A stretch of 32,000 nucleotides of DNA from Candidatus Saccharimonadota bacterium (GCA_030429145.1 JAUIDC010000001.1:720001-752000); one strand, 5' to 3'; shown: positions 1-32,000, numbered from the stretch's first letter. Notes: generated by a model from the sequence alone, not told the origin. Program-made: numbers and translations.

Positions 1-638
1 TCATCACTTATCTCTTGGGATCGTACTCATATTTACTGATAGAAAGAGGTATCCGATTCCCTCTCAACAGCCTTACAAATCTCAAGGCGTGGCTTTCTCC
101 TTATGGATACAAATTCCATTTTGTTGGTATACTTTTGGGTATTGTGTGGTCTCTTCGTAGATTTTTTAAGAAGATTGTAATCGGTTCAGAGAAGCGTAAA
201 TGGATAGATCTTTTCTTCTTTGCTACAAGTACAGCATTGATCCCTATGGGTCTGTTCTTCGTGCTCGGTGACAATATTATCGGTAGGCCAGCTCCTTTCT
301 CAGGTATAGGTGTGAGTGATCTGACTCCAGGTTGAGTGAGCGAGCTCAGTAAATATGGGAAGGTATTTCCGGTCTGAATCTTTTTGTCGCTTATCAGTAT
401 GTTGGCATTTGGCCTGACGTTTGTCGGTAAAGCTATAACGAAAAAAGAGGGCTGGTGATTTATAGGCTTTGGTGTATTGCTCCTTCTCATCAATGTTGTG
501 TTTAACTATCAACAGTATACAAGACACGGTGTTGTATCAGTTTTGGGCGGAACGCTGGATATTAAAAACATCTTGGCAATAGTAGTGTGAATTATTTGTT
601 TGATAGTTGGTATGCGTATTATTAAGAGAAAAAGATAG
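1..638 (+). CDS. Lgt-like (prolipoprotein diacylglyceryl transferase family) polytopic membrane protein, 5'-partial
   Basis: The frame is open from the window edge. ORF 15..335 continues through four in-frame TGA codons (333, 375, 456, 588) to TAG at 636-638. The protein is multi-TM, with an Lgt-like layout (GILLGIV ... LGDNIIGRPAPFSGIGV). The family assignment is from memory only. Confidence 0.5.
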
Positions 639-640
639 TC

Positions 641-2182
641 ATGAAGCTGTTTTTTACGAGAGATGATAGCTTTTATAAGATATGTAAAACGATAGAGAAA
701 CTCCCTAAAAATAAAAAAGTTTCTCTTTTTATGGAACCTCAAAATAGCTTCTTTCGTAATCCATGGCGATGAAAACAGGTAAAAAACATACTAGAAGAGA
801 GAAATATTAGCTATGTATTTATATGTAAAAGTGAGAGAACAAGGCGCTACTGTGAAGAGGCAAAGCTTGCTTACAGTTATGATCAGCCAAATCATTTCCT
901 CAGGGGGCTGAAGCTTGTCTATATGTTTTTTTTCCAAGCACAAAAATTCCATCTTTCTCTTTTCAATAAAAAAACAACCTTATCATATCTCTTTTTCATA
1001 GGGGAGATACTTATCATCGGACTGATTGCTTACCTTCTGTATCAATTTATCCTACCGAGTGCTACTATCTATGTGAAACCTTCGTATACGGTAGAGGATA
1101 TTGTCTACAATTTCCGTTATTATCCGTCGCGAAACCCAGAAGAGATCAAGGAGAGAGGCTTTATTAGTATCCCATACTATACGGGAAGTATGGACTATAC
1201 GTATATTCTCAAAACAAATACACAAAATATTAGCTTCATGCAAACTCCTGCGAGATGAACAGTAAGAGTACTCAATACTATGTACCAGTCATTTTCTTTG
1301 TTGCCTGATACCAAGTTAGTTACAGAAGATGGTATGCTCTTTACTATGCCAGAGTCCATCACTATCCCTGCTGCAACGAGATCTGGTCCTGGTGAGGTGA
1401 CAGCCACAGTGATCGCTATGGATAAGGATGAGGTAAATAGTATCATTGGAGAGAGGGGGAATATCCCAGTTGGGACGCAGCTGCTGATAAGAAATCTTCC
1501 TCAGAGTTACAACAATCAGCTCTTATATGCGGTTGCCTCGAGTGATTTCACAGGCTGAGAGACAAGGCAAAAATGAGCTATAACTCAAGCAGATCTTGAG
1601 AACATCAGGCAACGTATGTGAAACTATGTTCGTGCGAATAAGAAACAAATAGTGCTAGAGGAGTTTGCTAAGTGAGAAGATAAATACCCACTCATGTTTC
1701 AAAATCTCATTGATGTACAGGTAAATGATGTTACTTTTGATGCACAGGTTGGTGATGAACAAACTGACGTAGAAGGAAGGATCGATATAACTTATATTGT
1801 GAGATATTTTACCCGGGATAATTTAAAAGAAGCACTCAACGAGTATCTGGGTCAGCGTCCCTCACAAACATTGGATATCATTAGTATGCAGAAGAGTAGT
1901 CTGACCTTTTTCCCGGACACAAGCACGCTTGTCACAGGAGATACAGTGATCGTGATGCCAACGAAGATGAGTGTAATCTGGTGATATGACTTCAATAAAG
2001 ATTACAATGGTATAAAGGAGGATATGAAAAACGAGATCATTGGGAAGAGGAGAGATGAAGTACAAAAAATACTATTGGATTATGAAGAGATAGGAAGTAT
2101 ATTAATTAAGGTGTCTCCGCCTTGGTCAGATACGATCCCAGCGATTAGGTCAAGAGTAAGGTTTAAGCTTGCTGACGAGTAA
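641..2182 (+). CDS. N-terminally membrane-anchored hypothetical protein (resembles the CPR proteins often auto-annotated 'baseplate J-like')
   Basis: ATG at 641 lies 2 nt after the upstream stop. ORF pieces 923.., 1280.. and 1694.. share one frame, joined by 7 TGA codons with no TAA/TAG until 2180-2182. Motifs: TM helix LFFIGEILIIGLIAYLLY, and AR-[TGA]-TVRVLN ... TRSGPGEVTATVIA. Confidence 0.6.
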
Positions 2183-2187
2183 ATAAC

Positions 2188-2216
2188 TTGAAAAATAAAA
2201 TATTTATATCCATAAT
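2188..2216 (+). promoter_or_regulatory. sigma70-like promoter of pilin gene 1 (TTGAAA-N17-CATAAT)
   Basis: TTGAAA at 2188-2193 and CATAAT at 2211-2216 with a 17-nt spacer. The -10 box ends 6 nt before ATG 2223 and no Shine-Dalgarno is visible. Confidence 0.35.
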
Positions 2217-2222
2217 GGCACT

Positions 2223-2780
2223 ATGAGTCTCAGTAAAAAGTCGTCATTTACGCTGATTGAAATGCTGATAGTCATTGTGATTATCGGGATTTTAGCTGCA
2301 GCTTTGGTGCCGAGACTGCAGTCGGTACAGGCAAGGGCGAGAGATAGCAAAAGAAAGGTTGATCTCAGGACAATTGCTAATGGCTTAGAGATATATTTAT
2401 TGGATACAGGAGCGTATCCTCCAGATGATACCCCTGCTGGCTCTCCTGGAGCATGGCGTCATAGTTATGTGACAGCTCCTTGGATACCTGCGCTCAGTGG
2501 AATACTCAATACGATTCCGGTTGACCCAATTAACACACACGTTAGTTCAACAGCATTACATCCTTGGTATACATGAGGGTATCATTATATCTATTGGGCT
2601 TGGCTTTCCGGGGCTGTTAACTCGTATGATCTTGCTGCACAATTGGAAAACCTCCAAGATCCAGACAGAAATGAGCTGAAGTGATACAAGTATAATAATG
2701 AAGCATCTCAGTATCCTTGGGGTCAAAATTGTTGTAAAGTGCGTTATATTATTGATGTGAGTCCAAGAAACGTTAATTAA
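2223..2780 (+). CDS. type IV pilin-like protein (prepilin N-terminal cleavage/methylation domain), paralogue 1
   Basis: N-terminus is MSLSKKSS|FTLIEMLIVIVIIGILAAALVP. Two in-frame TGA codons (2574, 2682); stop TAA at 2778-2780. Confidence 0.85.
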
Positions 2781-2785
2781 ATTTT

Positions 2786-2814
2786 TTGGAAAGTAGAATA
2801 TTTACTTTGTATAG
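2786..2814 (+). promoter_or_regulatory. sigma70-like promoter of pilin gene 2 (TTGGAA-N17-GTATAG)
   Basis: TTGGAA at 2786-2791 and GTATAG at 2809-2814. ATG 2824 follows 9 nt later without a Shine-Dalgarno. Confidence 0.3.
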
Positions 2815-2823
2815 AAAGTTGGT

Positions 2824-3354
2824 ATGTTGAGAACAGCATTTACGCTCATAGAAATGTTGATAGTGATTGTCATTATTGGTATTTTAGCTGCAGCTCTTGT
2901 TCCAAGACTGCAATCGGTACAGTGAAGAGCGAGAGATAGTAAAAGAAAAGTTGATCTTAGAACTATCTACAATGCAAATGAGATCTATATCCTTGATAAT
3001 GGTTCGTATGCTCCGACCAATGGTCTTTTGCGCCATAGTTATGATACAGCTCCTTGGATACCATGATTGAGTGGCTTGCTAAACTCATTGCCGGTTGATC
3101 CGATTAATAGTCTTAATGGTGGCAATATTCATCCGTGGATGACAGGTTCATTTCACTATATTTATCATAGCTTGTATAGCGGAACGATCAATACATACGA
3201 TCTTGCAACACAGCTCGAGAATCCTCAGGATCCAGATAGAAATGAGATTCAGAACTGGAAACGTAATGCAGATCAACATTCATATGACAACTACTGAAGC
3301 CATCCGGCTGCTATGCAAATATACGACCTCTCTCCAAACGTAAAAAATCAATAA
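2824..3354 (+). CDS. type IV pilin-like protein, paralogue 2
   Basis: N-terminus is MLRTA|FTLIEMLIVIVIIGILAAALVP. Three in-frame TGA codons (2923, 3064, 3295); stop TAA at 3352-3354. The N-terminus and a C-terminal block (YDLATQLENPQDPDRNE) are shared with paralogue 1. Confidence 0.85.
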
Positions 3355-3396: not shown

Positions 3397-3445
3397 TAAA
3401 TTACTTGTATATGATAGCTATATGACTAACTTATTTATAGTCTAA

Positions 3446-3521
3446 TGGGGCGGTCGACGGGAATTGAACCCGCGGCCAGAGGATCCACAAACCTCTGCTC
3501 TACCACTGAGCTACGACCGCC
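3446..3521 (-). tRNA. tRNA-His (GUG), with encoded G-1 and CCA
   Basis: The reverse complement GGCGGTCGTAGCTCAGTGGTAGAGCAGAGGTTTGTGGATCCTCTGGCCGCGGGTTCAATTCCCGTCGACCGCCCCA folds as a cloverleaf. The anticodon loop is TTGTGGA. An extra 5' G pairs with C73, as expected for bacterial tRNA-His. Confidence 0.9.
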
Positions 3522-3606
3522 ATCTGTATCGTGCTGGCGTAGAAGAACTTATACAGATTTGTGGGTAAAAAGCAATAAGAACTCTTTATTTTTTCTCTTT
3601 CTGCTG

Positions 3607-4383
3607 ATGAGAATAAAATATCTACTGATAGGTATGATAGTGGCACTTAGTAGTTTCTCACAGGCTTTTGCTGTTTGAAATATTAGAGTTCTTCCTGGAA
3701 GATCATTGAACTATACCACTTATCAGTGAACTAAAATTTGGCACTATGAGGTTCCAAAGATTACCGTCATTAAACCAGCTGCTTTCAGCATTGTCTTCAA
3801 TGGAGTAGGTAATACCGCTTCTCGCCTCGTTCGTGATGGAGAGTATGCGGCTGTGCTCAATGCATCCTACTTTGGTCGACATCAAGACGGCACTTATTTT
3901 CCTGCAGGTGTCTGGTATGACAATGGATTCTTGATATCGCCACAAATGATACCGCAAAAAGATTTAAATTTACAGGTGTTGGCATACTACTATAGTGGTA
4001 GTATCGACTTTTATGAGAACAGCGAAATAGACATTAGTAGTCTGTCTCATACAACTCCAGGACTGTATTTTAATGCGTGACCGTGGCTTGTCAAAGATGG
4101 TACCATCAATCCTGATATTGTCAGATCTCGTTCTCATCGACAGTCAAAGGCATATAGGACGGCTATGCTTCGTACAGAGACAGGAGAACTCTATTTTGTG
4201 ATTGCTACTGAGAAGATAGATCTACCACAGCTTATAGTCTTTATCTACAAGAGTAGGTTCATACAAAAAGATGAAAAGTTTAATCTGGTAAACTTAGACG
4301 GAGGTTCTTCAACCTCCCTATGGTCACCAATAGTCAAATTTAATGCAACAAAAAGGTTACCGCTTTTTATAGGTGTTAAGTAA
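3607..4383 (+). CDS. secreted phosphodiester glycosidase family (DUF2233/NAGPA-like) protein
   Basis: Signal-like N-terminus MRIKYLLIGMIVALSSFSQAFA. Motifs NA-[TGA]-PWLVKDG, RTAMLRTETGELYFV and VNLDGGSSTSLW. Three in-frame TGA codons. The upstream part of track ORF 3445.. overlaps tRNA-His and is not coding. Confidence 0.7.
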
Positions 4384-4389
4384 GTATCT

Positions 4390-4977
4390 ATGCAATATAC
4401 AGGAAAGGTATTTTTTATATTGGGGGTCGCAGGTTCTTGAAAAAACACAGTTATTCACAATGTTCTCCAGACGGATCTTCCCCTGTCTCAAGTTATTTCT
4501 TGTAAGACAAGACCACTTAGACCAACGGAAAGAGATGGAGTGGACTACCACTATCTTTCTGAAGAGGAATTTGAAGTGGCAAAAGGACAAGGTGAATTTT
4601 TGGAGTATGCGTTAGTGCATCAACTCTACCGATACGGGACAAGAAAGAAAGATCTTGTAGAAAAGTTGAAAGAGGGAAAATATGTCATCAAGGAGATAGA
4701 TATCCATGGGTTAATGATTATTGCTAAAGAACACCCAGATATATGGGCTGTTACAAAGAGTATATTTCTGGATATACCTGATGAGACGATGATAGAAAGA
4801 GTTACCTCGAGAGCAGCACTTAGTGACAAAGAAATGCAGAACAGATTACAAAGTGCCATAAAAGAAAGACAGTTGGCAAAAGAGTATTGTACTGACATCA
4901 TTGACGCTACACCTTCTCAGGAGGAGGTGGCAGCACATGTCTATGCGTTGATCTCTCAGTATATTTCAGAAGAGTAA
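4390..4977 (+). CDS. gmk: guanylate kinase
   Basis: Walker A motif GVAGS-[TGA]-KNT, with TGA at 4438-4440 on the invariant Gly. Also TRPLRPTERDGVDYHYLSEEEF and GEFLEYALV..LYGT. Confidence 0.9.
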
Positions 4978-5661: not shown

Positions 5662-6744
5662 ATGTCGACAATAGTACGAATAGCAGTAGGAGTGGTTCTT
5701 GTTGGGTGTTTTGCTTTGGTAGTAGCTATAGCATTTATGAAACAAAAACTATGAAAGGAAGGTAATGATAATGTGCTCCATGAGAAGCATGCAGAGTTTT
5801 TCTTTTCTTGACTGGAGCATATTCACGTTCATCATCCTAGAGTAAGAGAGCTTTATAGAGCACTACAGCAAGAGATAGTCGGTATGGACTATTTTTTACA
5901 TGGTTTGCTTTTGTCTTTATTTGCTGGATGACATGTGCTTGTAGAAGGAGCACCTGGTCTTGCAAAAACAAAGACGATTCGCTTGTTGGCATCGCTCCTT
6001 GCGTTGGATACAAAGCGCGTGCAATTTACGCCTGATATGTTGCCAGCAGATCTTATAGGTGTTGATATGTTTAATCATGCGACACACTCATTTGAGACGT
6101 TTTTTTGACCGCTGTTTACGAATATTTTACTAGCGGATGAGATCAACCGTGCTACGCCTAAGGTCCAGTCTGCGTTACTTGAAGCTATGCAGGAGAAGCA
6201 GGTGAGTATTGGTGGAAAGTCTCACCTTCTGCAAGAGCCATTTTTCGTGCTAGCGACACAAAATCCAATCGAGCAAGATGGAACGTACCCTCTGCCTGAA
6301 GCACAGCTTGATAGATTTCTTACAAAGCTTCAGGTCTCTTATCCATCTCTTGAGAGTGAAAAACAGATACTGCAAACAGCTGCATCGTCGGCGAATGAGC
6401 AAGAGCATATACTTACAGGAGAAGACCTTCTAGCTATGCAACAGGAAGTTGCTCAGATTGCTGCATCGGATGAGATGCTTGAGTATATAGCTCGTATTGC
6501 TGATGCTACGAGAGCTGCATCAAATGAGATAGACTATGGTGTTTCACCAAGAGGTTCTCTTGCTATACTTTCATTGGCAAAGGCAGTCGCTTATGTTGAA
6601 GGAAGATCGGCTGTTACTAAAGATGATATTAGAAAGGTTATACTGCCTGCTTTGGGACATCGTATTATTATCTCCATGCATGCGCAGATGGAACAAAAAA
6701 AGCCTGAGCATATTCTCTTTCAGGCAGTTCATAAGGTTCTGTAA
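5662..6744 (+). CDS. MoxR-family AAA+ ATPase (start uncertain; the ORF includes a hydrophobic N-terminal extension)
   Basis: Motifs FAG-[TGA][13 protein letters not shown] (Walker A), [23 protein letters not shown] (Walker B/sensor) and [26 protein letters not shown]. Four in-frame TGA codons. An alternative start is the M at about 5737. Confidence 0.85.
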
Positions 6745-10344: not shown

Positions 10345-10689
10345 ATGTTTAGCTTTTTTCTGGACATTTCCATGTACGATACTATTCTGCACGTAGCAAA
10401 CGATATTATCACTATCTGAGGAGCGTTGATTATTATCCTTGCGGTGCTTCTGATGATTGTACTGCTTGTCATGGCTGCCAGAGTAAACAGAGTCGTATGA
10501 AAAATAAACGATACGGTCTCAGTAGTCTCACAGTATGTCATGTTGCCTTTCACTTACCTTTCGAGTTTACTCTCGTGAAGTGAGTCAGGTAAAGCATCGT
10601 CATCACGTAAAAGAACGGTAAAAGGAAAAAAGTAATTGTTTTATTATTAGCAAGTAATCTATCACCATGAGTGGGAAAAAAGTAAGTAG
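10345..10689 (+). CDS. small membrane protein (hypothetical) overlapping the secD start
   Basis: ATG at 10345. One TM helix (ALIIILAVLLMIVLLVMAA). Three in-frame TGA codons and TAG at 10687-10689. It does not look like YajC. Confidence 0.4.
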
Positions 10690-12856
10690 TCGCTTGGCAT
10701 TGTACGCGGCATTGTTTATTGTGTCACTATTCCTCATCTTCTTTGTTGGAACTCGTATAGACAAAGAAACATGAGAATCACATACTATCATTACATCAGA
10801 TGGTCTCATGCACTTCAAGAAAGGTCTGGATATTGCAGGCGGAGTGAGATTGACCTATAAGATCGATTTTGCGAAGTATGAGCAGGTATATACCAATGAA
10901 ACAGAGCTCCTACAAGCGAAGAAAACAGCTCAAGATATTATCCTAAAAAATATCGACTCAAGAATTTCAAAACTCGGTGTGAGTGATTATTCATCGTATA
11001 TCCAGAAGTTGACGGATGGTGACTATCTTATCGTAGAGATTGGTGGACTAGATGACATAGATGAGGCGAAGCGTATTATCGGAAAGACAGTAGAATTGGA
11101 GTTTAAGCTTGCAAATGATGCAAACGAGGGTTCTGCGGAACTGTATGCTGAAAGACAAAATATTGCTGAAAATCTTTTGCTCAATGTAAGTGCTAATCCT
11201 GAACAGTTTGAGGCGCTTGGTACTGGTAGAGCGTCAGAAGACATTTTCTATACAAACTATGTGGACACGCCTATTGAGCAGCTTCCAGATATCTACAGAA
11301 CAAATCCAACTTTGTTGAGTTCGCTACAAACAGGAGCGATTTATCCAACATTGCTTACGGATACCTATCATGTTATCCAGGCACAAGATGCAAGTGGAGC
11401 AGTGCAGACGCAGACATTGAAAGGCTTTACTATCGTGAAGTTCAATGGTGCGACATCAGTGAGACTTGATTCGTTAGAGCCTGCAAGAGTGCTTGCTGTT
11501 GCTGAAAGACGTGGATTGGATACTGAAATCGTGTGGCAAAAAGACATAGCTCCTTCTACAACAGGGCTGATTGCATATGATGGTGCTAGTACAGTGAAAT
11601 TTACAGGACCTGAGGCTCTTCCAGGTGTGTCAGGCTATAATATTGCTCTTTATCAGGTAGTAGATATTACCAATACTGCTACTATCGCAGATGCGGTGAG
11701 AGCAGGAGAGCCGCTTTCTGAAGAGCAGGCTGTACAGCTAGTAGATGGTTGGGCTGATGGTAGCGTGCTTGCTGCTCAGCTTATAGGATTTGATCCAACT
11801 CTAGAGGTGAATATCTACGACCAAGCAGAAGGAACATTTATCCTCAAAATAACTGATAGCAAAGATGCAAGTGAGACGCTTGTTCCTACTATCTCATTCG
11901 GTGGTATGAGTGCTCAGTCAGCAGATAGATTGATCTCGGCAATGCTCAACGCAGAGCTTTATAGTATAGAGGATATTCGCGTACAAGACACGCAGACATG
12001 GGTGCCTGCTATAGATCCAAAGAGTAACGATATCCTCAATGGTGCATTCTTCAAATTTGCAAATGTGACACAATCACAAACTGGGAAGCCGGTTGTTGCT
12101 ATCAATTTCGATGATAGAGGACAGGATATCTTCTGTAATGTGACGGAAGCAAATATCGGAAGACAGATGGCTATCTTTGTAGGAGGACAGTTGATGACAG
12201 CACCGACTATTCAAGATAAAATCTGTGGTGGAACAGCTCAGATTGATGGAACATTCGATGTAAAATCTGCAAAAGAACTGACAGAAAATCTCAACAGTGG
12301 AGCATTGCCTGCACCATTGATCCTTTCGCATGAAGAGAAAGTGTCGCCAACGCTCGGAGAGAGTGCACTTAAAGGTGCATTTATCGCCATCGCAATAGGT
12401 TTCGCAGTTATCTTCTTGTTGATGCTTTTGATGTATGGATGGAAGAAGGCAGTCATTGTTACTATAACGCTTATTTTCTTCCTCGCTTTCCTTATGGCTA
12501 TCTTTAAGCTGTTTGGTGTTGTCGCCTCGCTTTCAGCAATTGCAGCTGCAATCCTTACTGTAGGTATGGCGGTAGATGCGAACGTACTTATTTTTGAAAG
12601 ACTGAAGGAAGAACTCGCTCAGTGAAAATCTATGCGTACTGCTATAAGTGATGCATATGAAAGAAGTTGGTTCCCTATTAGAGATGGAAATATTAGTACT
12701 GGTCTTATTGGTTTCCTTCTCTTTACGATGGGAGTAAATGTATTTAAGGGGTTTGGTACGACTATCCTTATCAATATGGCATTGATTCTTCTGGTAAATG
12801 TGCCTTTGACAAAAGAGTTGCTTTATCTGTTCTATAGAGGAGAGAAAAGTAAGTAA
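10667..12856 (+). CDS. secD: protein translocase subunit SecD with an enlarged periplasmic domain
   Basis: N-terminal TM helix, then GLDIAGGVRLTYK. The C-terminal TM bundle carries VDANVLIFERLKEELAQ-[TGA]-KSMRTAISDAYERSWFPIRDGNISTGLIG. Two in-frame TGA codons. Confidence 0.85.
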
Positions 12857-12918: not shown

Positions 12919-15900
12919 ATGAAAAGAACCATATTTCTCATACTAGCTATTCTTGTACTGGTTATCCTAGGATATCAGGTATTCGATGCATATTTACTCA
13001 ATCACCCATACTATTTCGGGTCAGCTACAGACGTTGGTATGCTAGGATCTGCTCAAAATCGAAAGGTGCTTATTCGAGCACTGTTAGCTGCATGTATCCC
13101 TGTGAGTTATCTGTTATTTATGAAAAAGAAAAGTTTGAAAGGATTGGCTATTAGCGCCTTTCTCGGTCTTTTTCTCTACTCGGTTGCAGAGGCTGTTATT
13201 AAACAGGATATCCTGTGACCAGGTTTCTTGTTGATGCTCTTTAAGTATGTGATCATTGTTGGTATTATCGTCTACTTCATCGTAGGATTGCTTGCGGTGG
13301 GAACTCGATTGAGAAAGAAAACATTTGGTAGTCACCACTGGAATATTGAACAGATTTTTTTGAATATAGGACTGGGACTTATTGTTTTCTGTCTCCTGAA
13401 CTATGCACTGATTATTCTCCATCTCTTCTATGGTATAGTCGTCGCAGTGATGTTTGTTGGGCTTGGCGTTGTTTGGTGGATGATGAGAAAAAGTATTACT
13501 GAGGCTGGCGAGTCTGTTGCTGGTATAGTGAATGAGATTAGTCGAACTAAGGCAGTGAGCTCTCCTACAGTTATGATGTTTGTGATCTTGGCTCTCTTCT
13601 CGTTTATGTATTTGTTCTATGGATTTGTCCTGTCTGATATCCCATATCCGACAGCTTGGGACGCCAATCATGCATATATGTACTTTCCAAAAATCTGGGC
13701 ACTCAATGCTGGATTCTACTGGGAGGAAAGCATCATGACTACTCCTACTATGTGGCTTGGATACATAGCATATTGGTTTAAGTTTATGTTCATCTTTGGC
13801 CAGAACACATGGATCAGTGCTGACAATCTTGCGGTGATTATGAACTTCCTTAGTGGTGTCTTTACACTCACATTTGGTTTGATCTTGGTGAAAGAAGTAT
13901 TGATTTTCATTCATGGGAAAGAGGAGCGTAAGACTCACTCTCTCTTCTTCGCTATTGGTTGGTTTCTGTTGATCCTTTGGCTAACAAGTGGTATGGGTGC
14001 GTTCTTGGTATTTGTCGATAATAAGACAGATCTTGGTGTGATGGCATTGACGATACTGGCATTGTACTCAGGCTTTTTCTTCCTCAATCAGCTGAGAGAT
14101 CATACGGAGGGAAAGAAACATTCACTTCACTATGTCATCTTATCGGGAGTGTTCTTTGCTGGAGCTATCTTAGCGAAACCGACAGCGACATTTGATGTTA
14201 TTAACTTTACCGTTATGATAGCTGCATTGTGGTTCGGTGCTATCCTCGCCTTTGGTGGATTCCTTTTGCTGCTCTGAGTGCTCGGAAAATCAGCTATCCT
14301 TACTGTACAAAAATTTCTCAATGATACGATGAGTAATCAGCTGCTTGCAGCATGAGGTATCGTCGGTGTTGCGGGCGTTGTCTATGCGTGGTTGAGAAAA
14401 AAATGGGCAAATCTACGTTATCTACTTGTGTGGGGTGTGGTTATTATTGCTACATTGGTTGTGGTTAAAGCGCCATACCTTGTGACAAAGCAACTCAAGG
14501 TTGACGATAACTTTGCACCAGTGAAGCTTATCAAGGATATCTTCCTTACGAGAAATGACACCGAGATCGTAGACAAGAAAAAAGATCGCATCCTTCTTGC
14601 AAGCACTTATGACTACCGCACTTTGCTTGCTGCCGATGCAGGAGCAGATCAAACAGATTCTTCTGAAATAACTCAGCCAAACGACGTGATTGCAGCATGT
14701 GAGGCACAAAATATTTCAAAGGAAGATCTTTACTCAAACCTCAAAACTCCTCCAGGAAGTGCATTAAACGAAGACGTAGGAAGATACATAGGATATGGTT
14801 GGAGAACGTTCGACCGTCCATGGCGAGGGTTCGCTTTCTCTGAAGGATGTCATGCATGGACAGCAGATGCAAAAATCCTTTGTCAAAATGAGGATGTTAT
14901 CCAAAACCCAACACTCTCAGGACTACAGTCTCTTTATGAAAAGCTTCCTGATAACACTAGAGGCAAAGAGATCTTAGGTAGTATCATGGATGAAAATACA
15001 ACAGCGATCCAGCTAGCAGCAGATATAAGAGAGCTAGAGGCTTACTACAAAGACAAGAGCTGGTATAAGGAAGATGGTAAAATTTCTTTGCCATTTACTG
15101 CTTTGGTACCATTTAATATTACATTCAACTGGTCTCTCCAAAACCTTACAAGTTACTATACTGATATAGGTGTTATCTGGCTTCTGTGTCTCTTCCTGAT
15201 CATCATAGGATTTATCTATAGCTTAGTGAAATGGAATAAGTCGTTGTTTGCTGTGACATTGGCTACGCTGACAGGGTGGACACTCTGGTGGGTAGCATGA
15301 GGTGCTATCCTCTGGTACTCACTTGGTGTCGTGATCTGGACAGTTATTGCAACTACGCTTGTACTCTATACACTGGGAAACGATACAAAGGGTGTGCAGA
15401 AAAATCTTTTCATGTTGCTTGCAGCCGTATTCGCCTTTATTGGTCTCTTCCAGCTTCTTCTCAATTTCATCAGAATTTCATCTCAAGGTGGCGGTGGTCC
15501 TTTTGTTTGGTATAGAGCGAATGTAGGAAATGTAACGACATTTGATAGTAATCTTGTACAGGAAACGAAGCAAAAGATTGGCTATAGTGATGAGGATGTC
15601 TTCCAGTTGCAGTTTGGTCATTATGATAAAACCATCTCTATTCTCGACGCAAGAGACGATAATGAAGGAGTTGTCATTGCTGGAACATACCTTCCATACT
15701 TCCTTACAAAACAAACAGGTATTTCTAACGACGGGTTTCTTGTAGACTTGTGGAAAAATCTCTCGGATAACGACCCATGTCGTACCTATCTGAGACTAAA
15801 AGACATGCAAGAGAAATATCTGGTGATCGATCCAAATATTGCCAGCGTTGTTATGGGAGATGCCAATAGATCACTTATGGACAGAATATTTGGTAAGCTG

Positions 15901-18527: not shown

Positions 18528-18965
18528 ATGAAGTGTCCAACGTGTTGAAATGTTGATACAAAGGTTGTAGACTCTAGAGTGGTAGAGTGAGGATATGCTA
18601 TTAGGCGTAGACGTGAGTGCGAATACTGTGAAGAAAGGTTTACTACCTTTGAGAGAAGGTGAAATACAGATCTCGTGGTGATTAAGAGAGATGGTACAAA
18701 GGAGCTATACGATAGGATGAAAATCAAGAAGGCTTTATTGCTTGCGTTTGCAAAGAGAGAGATGACAAACGAGGCTATGGAAGAGATGATTAATAGTCTA
18801 GAGATGAAGTGGACAAAAAGTGGTTCAGAGATAAACTCTCAGGATATTGGTAAAGACATAGTCCGACTGTTGAAAGAAAAGGATCCTGTGGCATACGTGA
18901 GATTTGCTTCGGTCTATCTGTCATTCAATACCTTGGATGACTTTAAGCACCTATTGAAAGAATAA
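18528..18965 (+). CDS. nrdR: transcriptional repressor NrdR
   Basis: MKCPTC-[TGA]-NVDTKVVDSRVVE-[TGA]-GYAIRRRRECEYCEERFTTFER gives the zinc ribbon, followed by an ATP-cone domain. Three in-frame TGA codons. Confidence 0.9.
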
Positions 18966-21273: not shown

Positions 21274-22203
21274 ATGTTGAGAGTAGGAGCACATACGTCT
21301 ATAGCAGGAGGGATATATAATGCATTTGAGAGATCTCATGAGATAGGAGCAAACACCTTACAAATATTTTCAAAGTCCCCAAGAGGTCGGTCTATACCCA
21401 ATTATTCTGATGAGGACTATCAGAAAGCAAGAGAGTATAGGGAAAAGTATGGACAGATAGGAGGTCTGATTCACTCAAACTATCTTGCTAATTTGTCTAA
21501 ATCATTTGATGACTGCCAACCTGATATCAAAAGCGTCTTACACGACTTTGAGGTTGCTCATCATACAGGCTTTGAGGCTATCAATGTGCATGTAGGTAAA
21601 GGAAAAGGGTTTGATGATGTAAAGGATGCCTATATGAACATGGCAAAAAATACTGAGTATATTTTGGAGCAGAATAAGAAACACTGATACAAAGCACAGT
21701 TCCTCTTTGAAATTACTTCGGGGCAGTGAAGTGAACTTGGTTACTTAGTGGAAGATCTCGCAAAGTTTTACCAGTGATACTTGAAAGACTTGCCTGTCGC
21801 ATTTTGTTTTGATACGGCTCACGCTCGATGAGGAGGAAACGATCTCAATAAGTGGGACGAGTTGATAGAGCGTCGAGATGATGGGATTGGTATAGATAAG
21901 TTGCATGCTTTTCATCTCAATGATAGCAAGGCTGCTTTAGGATCTCGCTTAGATAGACATGCGCCTCTTGGTAGAGGAGCTATCTGATTGCCAGCTCTTT
22001 CTCAGGTTATTACATGGGCAGAGAAACATGACAGACCTATGTTTTTAGAGACAACAGATCCAAGTTTGTGGCCTAAGGAGATAGAGTATATTAGACATAT
22101 TGAAAATGGTAATACTGATTGGATAGATGCATTTCACGAAGAACATGCAGGAACACATTTGCTGAAAAAGTTTCAGTGATGAGATCAAGCCTCTCTTTTT
22201 TAG
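21274..22203 (+). CDS. nfo: endonuclease IV (AP endonuclease)
   Basis: Motifs [19 protein letters not shown]-[TGA]-[13 protein letters not shown]-[TGA]-GG and HAFHLNDSK...[14 protein letters not shown]. Seven in-frame TGA codons; TAG at 22201-22203. Confidence 0.85.
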
Positions 22204-22220: not shown

Positions 22221-22709
22221 ATGAAGAAGGAAAAGATTATATTGGCTGTTGATCCATGAGTGCGTAAACTCGGTTATGCATTGATCAAAGAAGATATGAG
22301 TATCGTCGATGCAGGTATTATTTTGCAAGACAAAAAGAAACCAACAAGAGAGGATCAGTTTCAAAGGATGAGACAAATCTATGAGTTTTTTGAGAAGATG
22401 TCGACACGTGTCGACATAGATCTTTTTGTGATAGAAAAACTTTTTTTCACTGATATGAATCAAGCTAATGCAGAGTTCGTGTATGGTGTGAGAGGTATGC
22501 TTATTGCACTCATGTTGATGAATGACATTCCTGTGAAAGAGTATACGCCGGTAGAGCTGAAAAAATATGTAACGTGAAATGGTAGGGCAGACAAAATCTT
22601 TGTACAAAAGATGATTATGAAAATCTATAAGCTCGATGAACTACCTGAGTACAATGATGCAGCAGATGCTCTTGCATTAGCCTATATCTGACTGAAAACA
22701 TCACTCTAG
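22221..22709 (+). CDS. ruvC: crossover junction endodeoxyribonuclease RuvC
   Basis: Motifs ILAVDP-[TGA]-VRKLGYALI, LFVIEKLFF, and NDAADALALAYI at the C-terminus. Three in-frame TGA codons. Confidence 0.85.
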
Positions 22710-23888
22710 TTGATTACTGATTGATATCCTTATGGCAAATCGCTATACATAGGAGTTTTATTTTTTTCGTCATCTCCCGTGCCAATACTTGTCGTCTGAG
22801 CGTTACTTGTGATCATCGGTATACTCGCTATTTATAGCGTGAGTATTCACGAATCTTTTACGCTTACTCTGACAAAAGTTGCAGCGGGCGTACTGGCAGA
22901 GCCGTCGAATTATTTCTATTTCAATAAGCATATTATCAATATCATAGTTGCTCTTGGTGTGGCGCTTATTACCTATAAAATTCCTCTTAAATTTTTCAAA
23001 AAATACAATCATATCATCTTCGTGCTCGCATTTATCTTCCAGCTTCTTGTGTTTACAGGGCTCGGATTGTCGCTACAGGGTGCAAAGGGGTGGCTGTATC
23101 TGTGATTCACAACTATTCAACCTTCTGAGTTTTTTAAACTCGCATTTGTTATCTTTTTTGCTGGCTGGCTTGTGAGAAAAAAGCATGTGTTAAAAACGAT
23201 GCGCTGATATCTCGCATTTCTTTTTATCGTTGGAATAAGCTCTATCGTTTTTCTTGCTATCCCAGACCTCGGAACATTATTGGTAATCATCCCTCTTTCT
23301 TTCATCATGATGCGATATGGAGGAGGGAAACTGAAACATCTTGCACTGATTTTAATTGGTTGTCTTGGAGTGGGTATCCTTGTGGGTATGCAGTTTGGTT
23401 ACATTAGAAACAGATTGGAGTCGTTTGTTAATCCAAGCGCAGATACCACCGGTAAGGGTATTTCATATCAGATCAATCAGTCCCTCATTGCTGTCGGTGC
23501 CGGCGGTATCTTTGGCAAATGATATGGCAAAGGCTTACAGAAATTCTGATATATTCCTGAGGCACAGTCAGACTTTATCTTTGCTGCCTTCTCAGAAGAA
23601 ATAGGATTCTTCGGTAATATGGTTTTACTTGCATTGTATTTCTTTTTGGCATATAAGTTTATTAAACGTCTGCCTGAGACCAAAGATGAGTATGCAAAAA
23701 ACTTGGGTGCAGGTATCATTTCATTGATTATTATCCAGATGTTTGTTAATATTTGAGTAAATGTGAAGCTCCTTCCATTGACCGGATTGACGCTTCCATT
23801 TATCAGTGCGGGATGATCTGCGTTGATGGTGAATATTATTGAGTTGGTGCTTTTATATAAGATCGCTTATAAGAACGAGAAACTCTAA
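22710..23888 (+). CDS. SEDS-family peptidoglycan polymerase FtsW/RodA (start uncertain; TTG 22710 proposed)
   Basis: Motifs QPSEFFKLAFVIFFA, PEAQSDFIFAAFSEEIGFFG and LPLTGLTLPFISAG-[TGA]-SAL. About 8 in-frame TGA codons. The track's GTG start at 22809 would cut TM1. Confidence 0.8.
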
Positions 23889-24517: not shown

Positions 24518-24522
24518 TATAT

Positions 24523-24593
24523 AGGGGGTTAGTGTAGTGGTAACACAACGGTCTTCGGAACCGTCATCGTCAGTTCGAACCTGGCACTCCCTG
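24523..24593 (+). tRNA. tRNA-Arg (UCG), no encoded CCA
   Basis: The acceptor stem AGGGGGT/ACTCCCT, D stem GTGT/ACAC and anticodon stem ACGGT/ACCGT all pair. The anticodon loop is CTTCGGA and the T arm is GTCAG-TTCGAAC-CTGGC. Confidence 0.85.
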
Positions 24594-24658
24594 ATTACTC
24601 TTGTAACTTAGAGAGTTAAAATGAAATATAATAATAAATTTTAAAATCATAATATTCA

Positions 24659-25252
24659 ATGTCTGCGATAGAACTTACGGAAATACCAATCTCATGACAA
24701 CTAGAAGAAGTTAATTTTGGTACATCTAATAATTTGTATCGGGTTAAATTTACTGATAAATGAGTTAATAGTTGGGTCGGTAAATTTAATTTTGGTCTTG
24801 GGGAGTATTCTACGGTACTTAATGTTGATGATTCTCATGCTGTTATAATAGCAGGAGGAGACATATATTATATAAACTTTAAGCAAAGAAAGATCTTGTT
24901 TTCTGTTATAGATGCAGGAATCCGTTGAGTGATAGTACATAATAATGAAATAATTGTACATACATATCGACGAATACAAATATATTCTTTTACATGAGAT
25001 ATATTATATGATAGTCGCAATGATAAGGCAATCTTAGACGACTTAATTTTTGAAAAGATTGAAAATAATGTTTTATATGGTGTTTTCTACTCTTCATCTT
25101 ATTCTGACACTAAAGGGTCGTTTATGCTAGATATTTTGACTAGAACAATTACTACTAGAATAATTATTACACAATATAACCCTCCTCATAAGGATAAATA
25201 TAATAATACTCAAAGTATACTCGCTAGGCTTAAAAGCCTTTTTTCAAAATAA
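24659..25252 (+). CDS. orphan hypothetical protein (197 aa) in an AT-rich inter-tRNA segment
   Basis: The frame has 197 codons with no TAA/TAG in roughly 30% GC sequence and four in-frame TGA codons. It is invisible in the standard-code ORF track. A terminal hairpin AGGCTT-aa-AAGCCT plus a T-run sits at the stop. Confidence 0.55.
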
Positions 25253-25330: not shown

Positions 25331-25405
25331 GATCCCGTCGTTCAACGGATAGGACACGACCCTGCGAAGGTCGTAATGCAGGTTCGATTCCTGCCGGGAT
25401 CGCCA
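25331..25405 (+). tRNA. tRNA-Arg (GCG), CCA encoded
   Basis: The acceptor stem GATCCCG/CGGGATC and anticodon stem CGACC/GGTCG pair perfectly. The anticodon loop is CTGCGAA, the T arm is GCAGG-TTCGATT-CCTGC, and the discriminator G is followed by CCA. Confidence 0.85.
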
Positions 25406-27337: not shown

Positions 27338-29503
27338 ATGAGAGCAGTGCTTAAGTTTATCATCCAAGTTGGCCTTATCTTCTTGCTTTTACGAATTCTT
27401 ATAAAGTACACAACACTTGATGACAAGGTTGTCACTTTTTTCCGTGCAAATAGCTCAATTTCACAGACGGGTAGCGTCGTACAACAGGATCGTGTCATGT
27501 GTACCACACCATGGGGTGTGCAGATCCCAGATGGTTCAAGTACCTATGCGTATGAGCAAACATCGCAAGGGGAGTGTAAAGAGGAAATTAGAACATGTAA
27601 CGGTGGAATACTCGATGGTTCATATCAGTCTCCTGCCTGTGCAAATGATACAAATCAGACGCCAACACAAAATGACGATACTTCCATCTCATTTGGTATG
27701 GCATGTACAACGCCACGAGGCGAAACAGTCAATGATGGTGCATATATCATAGCCTATGAAAGCACAAATTCATGTAGATTTGAAAAAAGATACTGTCAGG
27801 ATGGTGTTCTCAATGGTTCATTTTCAGCGCACACGTGCTACTCACCAAGAGAAGTTTCTCAACAACCAGCACAGCAATCTACAACAAATACGCAGGTAGT
27901 GACTACTACGCCAAATATCACTACTGTTAACTATGGGCTTATCGAAGATAAAGGAGCTTCTGACTATCAGTGACCATCAAGAACATCCACAAATGGCGTC
28001 ACTACAGTGATATATTCATGGGATGATAATAAAACAAATCCTGTAAGTAGATCAGCGAACGATAGCAAGTATATACAGCCTACTGTCTACAGAAATTTTG
28101 ACCTTACACAGCATGGTTGTATGACACCACGAGGTACATACCTTGATCATGGTGACAATGTGATCGCATATAGATCACCAACACCTGAGAGTAATGGAGC
28201 ATCATGTACCTATGAGAGAAGAACATGTTTCCAAGGTATGCTTGGAGGAAGTTATGCATACTCTTCATGTTCATTGGGAGATAGTAAAAATATTATCAAT
28301 AATAATGGACAAGATTACTATTATCCTCAAAAAACAACTTATTATCCAACCTATCCAAGATACTATTCGAACGCTAAATCATGTACAACATCACGAGGCG
28401 AAACAGTACAACACGGTGATTATGTACTTGCCTATAAGAGTTCATATACATCTCAGGGTAAATCATGCCAAGGGGAGTATAGATATTGTAACAATGGAAA
28501 ACTCGATGGTTCATACCAGAACAAGTCTTGTATCATGTCACAGGATAAGTACCGTTGTGTGTTGCCACGAGGTGGAACCGTACCACATGGTTCGTCTGTC
28601 GTTGCATATGCAAATAGCTCGTCACCATGTGCTAGTCAGCTAAGAACTTGTAATTATGGAAGACTTTCTGGTACGTATACCTATCAGTCATGTGAGCAAA
28701 AGAGAGACTACTATAGAAGCTGTCAGCTTCCGTGGGGTGGAACAATCCCTCATGGTGCTTCAGCTATAGCTTACAATAGCCCATATGGTCAATGTTTCAG
28801 TCAAAAGAGAACATGTTATGATGGCTCTCTAGCTGGAAGTTATCAGTTCTCATCATGTTCAAATAACTATAATCCTCACAGCCGATGTGCTTTTGGCAAC
28901 TGTCATGGAGGATACAACAATAATCACAATAACTACCATAGCTGCCAACTTCCACGAGGTGGAAGTATCGCGCATGGCGCGTCTGTCACAGCCTACAATA
29001 GCCCAAGTGGTTCTTGTTACAGCCAAACGAGAACATGTTACAATGGCTACCTCAATGGTTCTTACCAGTACGGCTACTGTAATAAGTATCCAACCTGTAC
29101 AGGAAATAACTGTGGAAACAATAACTATAGGAGTTGTCAGCTTCCATGGGGAGGTAGTATAGCACATGGGGCAAAAGTAGAGGCTTATCAAAGTACTTCT
29201 GCACCTTGTTACAAGCAAACGAGAACCTGTAACAATGGCTATCTCGATGGCAACTACCAATATAGCTATTGTAATGCAACTAATCCTGGAGGAGGCCAAG
29301 ACTACTACGGTAATTGGATAGATGTCGGTGTAAAACAAGGTGACATGGATGGCTATGATACTTGTAACAACAATAGTGCATCGTCATATCTCTGTGGAAG
29401 CGAAGGAACAAACAGCTGTACCGACTATAGTAGAGTATCATGTACATCATTCTCTCCATTGGTATGTACCTACTGGAAGAGAGATGTGAAGTGTGTGAAA
29501 TAA
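27338..29503 (+). CDS. secreted/anchored cysteine-rich protein with eight tandem 4-Cys modules (721 aa)
   Basis: Track ORFs 27338.. and 28007.. share a frame and are joined by a single TGA (27971). Hydrophobic N-terminus FIIQVGLIFLLLRILI. Repeated module: C-x2-P-[WR]-G-x-x-[IV]-x-[HD]-G-x5-AY-x6-11-C-x5-[RY]-x-C-x-[NDQY]-G-x-L-x-G-[ST]-[YF]-x4-C. Confidence 0.8.
27500..29272 (+). repeat. eight protein-level tandem repeats (45-51 aa each) inside the Cys-rich CDS
   Basis: Module spans: 27500-27640, 27704-27838, 28118-28270, 28382-28531, 28556-28693, 28721-28858, 28943-29080, 29135-29272. The last four are closest to each other (CQLPWGGxIxHGA...). The DNA copies have diverged. Confidence 0.8.
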
Positions 29504-29530
29504 GAGATTTTCTGAGAAATCTTACATAAG

Positions 29531-29557: not shown

Positions 29558-29568
29558 GATAGATAGTT

Positions 29569-30288
29569 CTAATAAACAGAGAGATTTTTGACGCATTGAT
29601 TGAACGTGTCTCAGCGTTTCTTGTAGTTTTTAAACATATCAAAGCTTGGGGCGGCGGGAGAGAGGACTACAGCATCGTCTTTCTCGTTAGCAGCTTCACG
29701 AGCTTGGTTTACTGCCTCTTGCATACTAGATGCAGTAGATATACTTCGTGTTTGGTCAAACGTGTGAAGAAGATTTTTCCAGTAGTGTGGATCACTACTC
29801 AGACACACAATATGTTTTACTTTTGTATTGATCTCATCTATGACTGCCTCCGGTGGTTCTTTGATGTTCTGAGTTTTCCCTCAGATAATGAGGACTGTTG
29901 GCTGTTTTATATGAGCTAATGCGTATCGCAGAGTATTCCAGTTTGATGAGATGCTATCGTTGAAGTAGTCTATGCCTGAGAATCTACCAATATGCTGCAT
30001 TTTATAGGGGGTTTCTTCAAGTGTTGTGAGCGCTTCTATGAGTTGTGCTTTCCTGATGAGACCTCTATTTCCGTTGAGTTTCCCAACCAATCATGCTTTG
30101 ATATGATTGTTGAAGTCTATCTCTTTGAGACGATTGAAATCAGCTATCGTTTCTGCCTCATGACCATGGTGACGTTGAAAAGCGTGTTCATCGATTCACT
30201 TTGCTTTAAGCATTCCTCTTTTCTCATAGGTAAAAACGCTAATGATTATATAAAATCATTGCTTCATGTCAATCTTTCAAAAGAACAT
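29569..30288 (-). pseudogene. murD: murD (UDP-N-acetylmuramoylalanine--D-glutamate ligase), C-terminal ~240 aa only; N-terminal Rossmann domain and an intact P-loop are missing
   Basis: Motifs LVGKLNGNRG, GIDYFNDSISSNWNTL, VLII-[TGA]-GK and VVLSPAAPSFDMFKNYKKR-[TGA]-DRF. The frame is closed by TAA at 30310-30312 upstream. No ORF encoding ITGTNGKST lies above it. Confidence 0.55.
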
Positions 30289-30408
30289 GAAAAACACCAG
30301 TTGATACCCTTAAGTTATCAAGAAAGTGGGCATTTTGGCACTTATTACATATTATATATATGAAGTCAACCATCTATGTAGTAAATAAGTATTTATGTAT
30401 GATCTGTT

Positions 30409-30441
30409 TTGCGAATTTCTGAGAAATCTCTATTATATAAT
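30409..30441 (+). promoter_or_regulatory. candidate sigma70-like promoter (TTGCGA ... TATTATATAAT) facing the structured non-coding stretch
   Basis: TTGCGA at 30409-30414. The overlapping -10 candidates TATTAT, TTATAT and TATAAT at 30431-30441 give spacers of 16, 18 and 21 nt. Confidence 0.3.
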
Positions 30442-30628
30442 CATCACGTTGCCTAGGGAAAAGGTTGTCGCCTCTCCTTGGATGATATGGTCGAGGTATC
30501 CCTCGTAAAACCAGTTATCACTCCTATGAAAGCATATGAGGATAACACTCTATGCTCTGGTTTGTTGAGGTTTTCTCCAAAATCAACTGGCTGACTGTAT
30601 TTCTTTCATCCGTTTGATCTTGGCGAAA

Positions 30629-30683
30629 GCCACCTCGACGGATCAGGGTCGAGGTGGCGGTATCCGCTGCCTTTTTCTTTTTT
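30629..30683 (+). terminator. plus-strand terminator-like element (11-bp GC-rich hairpin, small second hairpin, T-run)
   Basis: GCCACCTCGAC-ggatcagg-GTCGAGGTGGC (30629-30658), then GCGG-tat-CCGC, then TTTTTCTTTTTT (30672-30683). Confidence 0.45.
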
Positions 30684-30713
30684 GAAAAAAATCCCCGTTG
30701 ATTAACGGGGATT
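30683..30713 (-). terminator. rho-independent terminator of the 309-aa gene
   Basis: On the minus strand: AATCCCCGTT-aatc-AACGGGGATT followed by T7, about 25 nt after the stop at 30739-30741. Confidence 0.65.
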
Positions 30714-30738
30714 CGTATAATATTATTCTATTTTGTTG

Positions 30739-31668
30739 TTATGCAGGCGGATAGAGAAACTTGAGAAATAATTTATCAAACTTTTTAAGTTCATCATGTC
30801 CTATTGCTTGCATGTGTTGATCTATACTGGTTCTGAAACTAGCACCTGCAAGTAATGCCCAAAGCACAAAAAGATTGCCTACTGGTAGTAATGATGGATA
30901 TCCATATCTCATGGCTGTGGCCATTGGATTATATGCAGGTTTTTCACTACGTATAGTGATGGCTTCATCCATGACTATTTCCCATTCTTTTTTCTTTCGC
31001 CCTATAAACGGCGGATTATTGCTAATCTTTTTCCACATTGTTTCACATTCTGATACAGCATCCATGAGATTCTTATTGAGGTTACTCATGAAAGATTCTT
31101 TATGTGGAACGCGAAGATATTCTCGCCAAACAATATGCTGGCTTTGTTTCTCTTGGAAATGTGCATCGTTGAGAATTGAAAACGATGCCGTCAGAGCAGT
31201 TTCTTTATCCCATCTATCTTTGATGAGGAATGCCATTCTGTATGACTTAGTGCCTGGTAAGCAATCGTTAGCTATAAATAATAACTGTACCTGCTTGTCT
31301 TGCTGATAACTATCAGCAAGGCTGCTTCTGTCGTAAAATCCTTTGACTAATTTGTATCCGAGAGAATACATGAGTTTGGTCAAAAATGTCCTATCGGTAG
31401 TGATGAAACTCTCATTGTTTTCGTTGGTTAGCTCTCTTTTTTTGATGGTTTCCCAACTTGCAAAAAGATCATATAAATTTTGCAGATCGAGATCATCTTT
31501 ATCAAAGGTAGGAATATTTGCTACTTTGATGCCGGTGATACAAGCTGTCTTGATTTTACGGCGTGAAGTTGCCTTTCGATTTCTCATATCGGTGATAACA
31601 CCTTTTATACTACTTTGAATGATGCGATTGACCAGTGATTGGCCAATGAGATGTGTTCTGTAATTCAT
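30739..31668 (-). CDS. orphan hypothetical protein (309 aa), family not recognised
   Basis: An uninterrupted ATG-to-TAA ORF with no in-frame TGA and its own terminator. It sits between mnmA and the truncated murD. Confidence 0.6.
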   Translation of the reverse strand: MNYRTHLIGQSLVNRIIQSSIKGVITDMRNRKATSRRKIKTACITGIKVANIPTFDKDDLDLQNLYDLFASWETIKKRELTNENNESFITTDRTFLTKLMYSLGYKLVKGFYDRSSLADSYQQDKQVQLLFIANDCLPGTKSYRMAFLIKDRWDKETALTASFSILNDAHFQEKQSQHIVWREYLRVPHKESFMSNLNKNLMDAVSECETMWKKISNNPPFIGRKKKEWEIVMDEAITIRSEKPAYNPMATAMRYGYPSLLPVGNLFVLWALLAGASFRTSIDQHMQAIGHDELKKFDKLFLKFLYPPA

Positions 31669-31750
31669 GATATAGATACTTTTCTTTTGTTACGAATTTG
31701 TTTACGAGGAAAGTATACTTTCCCATGCGAGAAAATCAACCAAATCTCTT

Positions 31751-32000
31751 TTATTGTATAAGTCAACTTCCGAGGAGTTCGTCTCACTGGTAGAGTGCTA
31801 CGATTTGGCCTGAAGCTACCGCTCTTTGCGGCTGAGAAAATTCGATTTTCATGAGATGATTGTCAGTTGCACTGATGGTGCAATCTTGGTCAGGCTGACG
31901 GTAGCGTATCTTTGCTGCTGCCTGCAAGGGGAGAGGAGGAACTGGGCTGATCCGATGCCAGTCGGTGGCTATGAGGCTATTACGGTAGAGCTCTGCCTCG
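31751..32000 (-). CDS. mnmA: tRNA 2-thiouridine synthase MnmA, C-terminal end (gene continues beyond the window)
   Basis: KIRYRQPDQDCTI...MKIEFSQPQRAVASGQIVALYQ-[TGA]-DELLGS-[TGA]-LIQ* matches the remembered MnmA C-terminus (RYR...PGQ..V.Y.GD..LGGG.I). Confidence 0.75.

Follow-up and report, generated by a model that had tools for sequence, protein, structure and literature searches.

In SR1/Gracilibacteria, UGA reportedly encodes glycine, a code listed as NCBI translation table 25 and ascribed to Campbell and to Rinke in 2013. For Absconditabacteria, a change of three codons was predicted with Codetta, in which UGA is read as glycine and both CGA and CGG as tryptophan, and a Trp-type tRNA(UCG) and a tRNA-Arg(GCG) were described in these bacteria (Shulgina and Eddy, 2021; eLife, PMC8629427). 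In that study, a tRNA(UCG) that has G73 and lacks A20 is taken as a provisional tryptophan acceptor, with A/G1:U72 as a supporting feature. According to a 2026 preprint, arginine-codon reassignments are still without experimental verification, and current tools predict tables 11, 4 and 25 only. The present analysis concerns the genetic code of a 32,000-nucleotide stretch of bacterial DNA (JAUIDC010000001.1:720001-752000; hereafter the window, in whose coordinates all positions are given). Comparison with relatives and with solved homologues makes it very probable that the window comes from an uncultured member of the Absconditabacteria (SR1) that reads UGA as glycine and CGA and CGG as tryptophan, with UAA and UAG as its only stop codons. 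This three-codon code matches the prediction of Shulgina and Eddy (2021) and is not plain table 25, under which the window had been translated in an original prediction made from the DNA alone.

The window has a G+C content of 39% (0.39), and 30 gene models were built in it, with 9,629 codons in total. TGA occurs in frame 105 times, zero to seven times per gene, and at least once in 29 of the 30 models, whereas 25 models terminate with TAA, five with TAG and none with TGA. On average, TGA accounts for 16% of the glycine-type codons. When TGA is treated as a sense codon, the fraction of the window covered by open reading frames (ORFs) of at least 120 aa rises from 0.56 to 0.96; with TAG as sense, as a control, it reaches just 0.66. 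Likewise, the total length of ORFs of at least 100 aa in six frames increases from 29.9 kb under the standard code to 59.1 kb when only TAA and TAG are stops, and the gain is much smaller when TAG or TAA is freed instead. The original prediction that TGA is a sense codon across the window, and that genes are split by TGA only and never by TAA or TAG, is borne out by these models. Pfam domains run without interruption across TGA codons in FtsW/RodA (domain positions 5-354 of 356), AAA_3 (1-130 of 131), RuvC (1-145 of 148) and AP_endonuc_2 (1-247 of 249). At the end of the endonuclease IV (Nfo) gene, the C-terminal tail KKFQ-[TGA]-[TGA]-DQASLF-TAG (22179-22203, + strand) is kept past the tandem TGA in four relatives, so that TGA is no terminator there, and tails beyond other near-terminal TGA codons are conserved in relatives as well.

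The TGA-free ORF of 309 aa at 30739-31668 is recorded on a single Logan contig of 94.6 kb, ERR3428547_4705; the table-11 products of 923-1258 and 2223-2576 have no exact counterpart on record. On that contig, public gene calls made with table 11 split RuvC, Nfo and PheS into fragments, as would be expected if TGA were untranslated and marked pseudogenes, assembly errors, selenocysteine sites or occasional read-through. The probability of such an explanation is negligible. The interruptions consist of TGA alone; relatives with about 70% nucleotide identity either share them or have GGN in their place, and purifying selection is evident; and the 105 sites in 30 genes align to glycine and not to cysteine. 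On the grounds of the GGN/TGA exchange in relatives, the TGA-only interruptions and the glycine columns, the selenocysteine, pseudogene and read-through readings were rejected.

The meaning of each codon was deduced from its unambiguous partner codons in relatives. Syntenic sequences were available from L002 (SRR7003763), L003/L004 (ERR1208492x), L057 (OZ246420.1, a 1.1-Mb chromosome) and L063, with nucleotide identity to the window of about 70-71% over shared genes; codon comparisons were pooled over L002, L003, L057 and L063, which are akin to one another. TGA codons of the window were compared with these four relatives 169 times, and the partner was GGN in 92 cases, TGA in 52, another codon in 25 and TGG in none, so that GGN or TGA was found in 144 of the 169. 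Glycine makes up 79% of the 76 unambiguous TGA partners, and GGN codons themselves reach 76-83%. At the top solved standard-code homologue, 14 of the 26 alignable TGA columns hold glycine and none holds tryptophan. The 14 glycine columns come from the guanylate kinase P-loop, MoxR (two), RuvC (two), FtsW (four), Nfo (two), SecD and two pseudouridine synthases (one each). Among 134 FtsW/RodA representatives with at most 40% identity to the search query (P0001, a close relative of the window protein), glycine is the commonest residue at five of seven informative TGA columns, with a mean glycine fraction of 0.54 compared with 0.57 at GGN control columns. Summed Pfam scores over nine domains in nine proteins are 1034 bits with TGA as glycine, 985 as X and 973 as tryptophan. 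Rescoring against Pfam and a tabulation of TGA columns had been proposed with the original prediction, and both came out in favor of glycine.

The same comparisons bear on UGA as tryptophan, the meaning it has under table 4 (Mycoplasmatales, some endosymbionts). Among bacteria this is the more common UGA reassignment, and it shares with the present case a sense UGA and reduced AT-rich genomes; moreover, tryptophan does occur at the FtsW/RodA TGA columns in a few database homologues (1-3%), which may come from recoded relatives that were mistranslated with table 4. However, with no TGG among 169 comparisons, no tryptophan among 26 solved-homologue columns and the lowest Pfam total for tryptophan, the chance that table 4 applies is vanishingly small, and the alignments to relatives and to solved homologues refute it. 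The difference from table 4 is that UGA stands for glycine here and that the additional tryptophan codons are CGA and CGG. Altogether, three independent lines (Pfam scores, solved homologues and codon alignments with relatives) strongly support reading UGA as glycine, and tryptophan is excluded.

Individual sites illustrate the glycine assignment (all on the + strand). The TGA of the guanylate kinase P-loop, GVAGS-x-K (4438-4440), corresponds to glycine in solved guanylate kinases; that of MoxR, FAG-x-HVLVEG (5929-5931), to glycine in 2r44; that of SecD, EELAQ-x-KS (12623-12625), to glycine in 3aqp and 5xan; and that of RuvC, VDP-x-V (22257-22259), to glycine in three solved RuvC proteins. In endonuclease IV, TSGQ-x-S (21727-21729) matches the glycine of the conserved TAGQG motif, and in FtsW/RodA, PFISAG-x-S (23814-23816) is glycine in 90% of the 134 divergent homologues. 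These six sites and a seventh had been described as invariant glycines, a description that fails for the seventh, the zinc-ribbon TGA of NrdR, CPTC-x-N (18546-18548), which lies in a variable column with phenylalanine in solved NrdR; the three TGA columns of this protein are F, E and E in solved E. coli-type NrdR. Two pilin-like type IV paralogues lie in tandem at 2223-2780 and 2824-3354 (+ strand), with identical N-terminal methylation/transmembrane segments. They had been presented as an internal control, and the pairing of TGA at 2574 with GGT at 3145 is indeed found, but of the four TGA columns that the pair offers just one aligns with glycine, the other three aligning with Ala, Ala and Asn. 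All nine codon coordinates given for these sites in the original prediction (the eight TGA codons starting at 4438, 18546, 5929, 23814, 22257, 21727, 12623 and 2574, and the GGT at 3145) were correct.

The assignment of CGA and CGG departs from table 25. There are 43 CGA and eight CGG codons in the 30 gene models, and these 51 codons represent 35% of the Trp-type codons. In 62 comparisons over the four relatives, their partner was TGG 31 times, CGA or CGG 26 times, a standard arginine codon once and another codon four times; thus the partner was TGG, CGA or CGG in 57 of the 62. The remaining arginine codons behave differently: AGA, AGG, CGU and CGC, in 389 comparisons, were never paired with TGG and never with CGA or CGG. 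CGT and CGC pair among themselves, and AGA and AGG pair among themselves and with lysine codons. Tryptophan accounts for 83% of the 18 unambiguous partners of CGA and, as TGG, for all five of those of CGG, and 12 of 13 aligned partners of CGG are TGG, CGG or CGA. In the alignments with relatives, TGG of the window is paired with "Arg" in one third of cases. Of the 62 codons put to the test, exactly three have a non-standard meaning (TGA, CGA and CGG), and the other 59 are standard.

A control of another kind lies within a single gene. The Cys-rich protein of 721 aa encoded at 27338-29503 (+ strand) contains eight repeats of the form C-x-x-(P/S)-W-G, extending as C-x-x-(P/S)-W-G...AY, and has no Pfam match. 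The tryptophan column of the repeat is mixed, with CGA in five of the eight copies (27716, 28130, 28394, 28568 and 28955) and TGG in three, so that the repeat provides an internal control for CGA as tryptophan. The protein is probably secreted. It has TGA at one of its 69 glycine codons, compared with an average of 16% for the window (p = 1e-4, binomial), and the contrast drawn originally between this single TGA and the seven in a 262-aa "PSP1" protein is accurate as to density, although the PSP1 family label is backed by a sub-threshold Pfam match only (E = 0.0034). In the L002 orthologue of the Cys-rich protein, TGA stands at seven of 75 glycine codons (p = 0.12), a weaker bias. The low TGA count, only weakly shared by that orthologue, was not taken as a sign of foreign origin.

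In standard-code homologues, the columns of CGA codons are aromatic or hydrophobic. At a CGA in a membrane segment of FtsW/RodA (23313-23315, + strand), the 134 divergent homologues have F (71%), L (12%), Y (7%), V (4%) and W (2%), and arginine is not among the five commonest residues. Two CGA codons of endonuclease IV, one in DTAHA-[CGA]-[TGA]-GG (21826-21828, + strand) and the other at 21874-21876 (+ strand), correspond to phenylalanine in solved Nfo proteins, and the CGA column of RluC/D is isoleucine in the solved homologue. The CGG codon of endonuclease IV, SKSPRG-[CGG]-S (21388-21390, + strand), adjoins the conserved tryptophan of the NQRQW motif of its homologues: when CGG is masked as X, phmmer places that tryptophan as an insertion directly before the codon, and reading CGG as tryptophan would align the two. 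Replacing arginine by tryptophan at CGA/CGG raises the Pfam score in four domains (+5.4, +4.2, +3.0 and +0.6 bits), clearly in Nfo, DUF212 and FtsW and marginally in guanylate kinase. In our reading, Pfam rescoring is weak for CGA/CGG because the rare tryptophan is penalized at variable columns; it is only weakly informative, and the CGA/CGG claim therefore rests on the codon-exchange data.

Plain table 25, with UGA as glycine, everything else standard and CGA/CGG as arginine, has to be weighed against these results. NCBI and current tools use it for the clade, the UCG tRNA of the window is named Arg by ARAGORN, and arginine scores slightly above tryptophan at CGA/CGG in four Pfam domains. The window shares with it UGA as glycine, UAA and UAG as the sole stops, and the clade itself. 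On the other hand, CGA/CGG as arginine was tested in the window and was not found: a standard arginine codon is the partner only once, while TGG, CGA or CGG is the partner in 57 of 62 comparisons and never that of the other four arginine codons; CGA and TGG are mixed in one column of the Cys-rich repeat; and the UCG tRNA lacks A20 and has A1:U72 and G73, whereas Arg-type tRNAs from candidate phyla radiation (CPR) genomes have A20. Plain table 25 is accordingly very improbable, and of the table-25 translation proposed originally the glycine part holds while the arginine part gives way to the exchange counts and the tRNA(UCG).

ARAGORN reports three tRNAs in the window: His(GTG), "Arg(TCG)" and Arg(GCG). 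The second of these is the putative decoder of CGA and CGG, a tRNA(UCG) with Trp-type identity elements. Rfam places it at 24523-24593 (+ strand), and ARAGORN places a tRNA-Arg at 24522-24594, a register that is off by one base. On the Rfam register the tRNA forms a perfect cloverleaf with A1:U72, G73 and a 7-nt D-loop, AGUGGUA, in which U follows GG and A20 is absent. It has the G73 and A1:U72 features of bacterial tRNA-Trp and lacks the A20 feature of tRNA-Arg, which makes it a provisional tryptophan acceptor in the sense of Shulgina and Eddy (2021). Unlike bacterial tRNA-Trp, it has the anticodon UCG instead of CCA, with G at position 37. We infer from these features that it would work like a tryptophan tRNA without being a canonical member; naming by anticodon hides the change of identity. 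The tRNA-Arg(GCG) is located at 25331-25402 (+ strand; ARAGORN and Rfam) and has G1:C72, G73, the D-loop AACGGAUA with A20, and an encoded CCA after it. Its G34 is expected to read CGU and CGC only, leaving CGA and CGG to tRNA(UCG) (wobble rules; PMC8629427). Between the two tRNA genes lies an ORF of 197 aa (24659-25252, + strand) with no Pfam match, four TGA codons and a tandem CGA-CGA at 24968-24973. In L002, the two tRNA genes are 73 nt apart with no ORF between, and the ORF of the window looks like a lineage-specific insertion.

When the 19-nt anticodon arm of tRNA(UCG) was scanned in GTDB representative genomes, 104 loci were recovered, with two clean tRNA classes. The Arg-type class, from about 88 CPR genomes, has the same anticodon arm, G1:C72 and mostly A73; the four commonest variants of its D-loop (87 of 88 genes) all contain A20, and AAUGGAUA occurs in 80. 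The Trp-type class consists of 12 sequences, from the window, its relatives and other SR1/Absconditabacterales genomes, some of which are labelled Peribacteria or Patescibacteria. A scan of metagenomes for tRNA-Trp(CCA) whose D-arm and anticodon stem equal those of tRNA(UCG) gave 27 loci and 25 usable genes. The contigs of these genes are not TGA-recoded; the genes are from standard-code organisms and are not SR1's own tRNA-Trp. They share the D-arm, the anticodon stem, the AGGRG acceptor start and G73 with the SR1 tRNA. At 38 positions that neither search pattern covers, tRNA(UCG) of the window is 61% identical to the tRNA-Trp(CCA) genes and 36% to the Arg-type tRNAs. This likeness implies that the body of tRNA(UCG) is Trp-like, and the tRNA looks like a tryptophan tRNA in which the anticodon loop CUUCGGA has replaced CUCCAAA.

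In the decoding scheme that would follow, tRNA(UCG) would be charged by tryptophanyl-tRNA synthetase (TrpRS) and read CGA and CGG as tryptophan, and tRNA-Arg(GCG) would be confined by wobble rules to CGU and CGC. The decoder of UGA would be a tRNA-Gly(UCA) whose gene lies in another part of the genome, and release factor 2 would be absent, both as reported for the clade. 

Several points weigh against the scheme, and the first concern UGA. TGA columns in distant homologues are not always glycine (F, E and E in NrdR, V in RluC/D), and neither the window nor some 21 kb of contig sequence that overlaps and adjoins it (right flank L001) contains a tRNA-Gly(UCA); of the 94.6-kb contig, about 42 kb was read. 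The bases of the CCA anticodon are major determinants for TrpRS. We infer the charging by TrpRS for a tRNA whose anticodon lacks two of these three bases; furthermore, tRNA(UCG) retains C35 and G36, elements used by arginyl-tRNA synthetase (ArgRS). With only eight CGG codons, support for CGG is thinner than for CGA, and tryptophan in place of arginine costs 0.3 to 2.9 Pfam bits in four domains, leaving a small and mixed net gain of +5.8. Finally, the relatives are mutually related, so that the codon comparisons are not independent events.

The retention of C35 and G36 also bears on ambiguous or transitional decoding, in which CGA/CGG would be read partly as tryptophan and partly as arginine, or UGG partly misread as glycine by a U34 tRNA-Gly(UCA). 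Wobble ambiguity between UGA-Gly and UGG-Trp was noted as possible by Shulgina and Eddy (PMC8629427), and the choice of tryptophan codons shifts quickly between relatives. If such decoding operated, protein sequences at the affected codons would be statistical mixtures. However, the arginine signal at CGA/CGG is almost nil (one of 62), CGA stands at buried aromatic or hydrophobic columns where arginine would be harmful, and the available sequence has no Arg-type UCG or CCG tRNA; ambiguous decoding is on balance improbable.

The turnover of tryptophan codons can be seen between the window and L002, in whose aligned genes CGA and CGG make up about 54% of Trp-type codons compared with 35% in the window. 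A multi-pass membrane protein of 1174 aa with no Pfam match (window 12919-16443, L002 122-3685) has CGA/CGG at five of 35 tryptophan codons in the window and at 22 of 36 in L002; its gene is TGA-poor in all three lineages. On these alignments, tryptophan codon choice turns over quickly between close lineages. A speculative and rather unlikely extension is that the UGA and CGA/CGG reassignments are causally linked and still in motion, with CGA/CGG replacing a UGG that is exposed to misreading by a U34 tRNA-Gly(UCA), and with the decoder derived by duplication of tRNA-Trp and an anticodon shift rather than by an identity switch of an arginine tRNA. If true, this would provide a documented instance in which a first codon reassignment drove another.

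The window agrees with the code predicted by Shulgina and Eddy (2021) in the meaning of all three altered codons, in a tRNA(UCG) that has G73 but no A20, and in the setting of a low-G+C SR1 genome. It also has a tRNA-Arg(GCG), which in their scheme takes the place of tRNA-Arg(ACG); no ACG tRNA is among the three of the window. Its G+C content of 0.39 lies just above their range of 0.26-0.38. CGA is used 45 times per 10,000 codons in the window genes, whereas their value is below 37 per 10,000, counted over Pfam-aligned columns and hence on a different denominator. In the share of CGA plus CGG, the window and L002 resemble the single "advanced" genome of that study. The prediction and the present analysis have in common that they are computational. 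In Anaerococcus and RFN20 Bacilli, too, a tRNA bearing tryptophan identity features has taken over a CGN codon of arginine, but there only CGG is affected, through tRNA(CCG), and tRNA(UCG) is lost, whereas here tRNA(UCG) takes both CGA and CGG (PMC8629427).

The coding sequence of the whole window (1-32000, no strand assigned) was ascribed to an SR1/Absconditabacteria contig on the basis of the 30 gene models, the ORF coverage and the lineage of FtsW. The closest FtsW/RodA match is 83% identical, and the named sequences among the best matches are all from Candidatus Absconditabacteria, Absconditabacterales or candidate division SR1. These matches place the window in Absconditabacteria/SR1 and not in Gracilibacteria proper, so that the recoding attributed originally to "Gracilibacteria/SR1" is correct as a known code of the clade but too broad as to lineage. 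Among the GTDB representatives carrying the 19-nt anticodon arm, none is identical to the window and there is no species-level match, the nearest having about 70-71% nucleotide identity. Three sequences labelled "Candidatus Peribacteria" (L057, L034 and L027) have an SR1-type tRNA(UCG), and L057 in addition shows synteny with the window, at a nucleotide identity of 71%. All three may be mislabelled taxonomically, and the translation table assigned to them may therefore be wrong as well.

Other features of the window deserve brief mention. An ordinary tRNA-His(GUG) is encoded at 3449-3520 (- strand; ARAGORN and Rfam); the ORF at 3430-4383 has a spurious extension whose 5' end overlaps with it. 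L001 contains a type II secretion/type IV pilus ATPase (T2SSE) immediately beyond the window's right end. The SecD-like protein of 729 aa (10667-12856, + strand) shows a strong match to the SecD half of solved SecDF but only a weak one to its SecF half, and no separate SecF was recognized in the window. A TPR-repeat protein (17289-18356, + strand) has an acidic tract of about 120 residues, nearly pure Asp/Glu/Ser, after its N-terminal membrane anchor. Downstream of the Cys-rich gene, an ORF of 239 aa (29569-30309, - strand) has a weak match, only to the C-terminal domain of Mur ligases, and TGA at six of 14 glycine codons, and an ORF of 309 aa (30739-31668, - strand) lacks TGA and matches no family. 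L002 has neither ORF in the corresponding stretch from the Cys-rich gene to mnmA.

The three-codon variant is already published, and what is added here is one more SR1 lineage, which has no species-level match among the GTDB representatives with this anticodon arm and makes relatively heavy use of CGA. The practical consequences concern translation. Table 11 shatters the genes of the window, table 4 puts tryptophan in place of glycine, and table 25 would write arginine at 51 likely tryptophan positions in 32 kb, several of them in conserved aromatic columns and in the Cys-rich repeat motif. Errors of this last kind are present in the original translations, where, for example, Nfo reads ...HAR-[TGA]-GG and the Cys-rich repeats read CxxP-R-G. 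With tRNA(UCG), its neighbor tRNA(GCG) and many CGA/TGG sites together, the window is a compact test object for this code, and structure prediction, family assignment and proteomic searches on SR1 genomes inherit the table-25 error.

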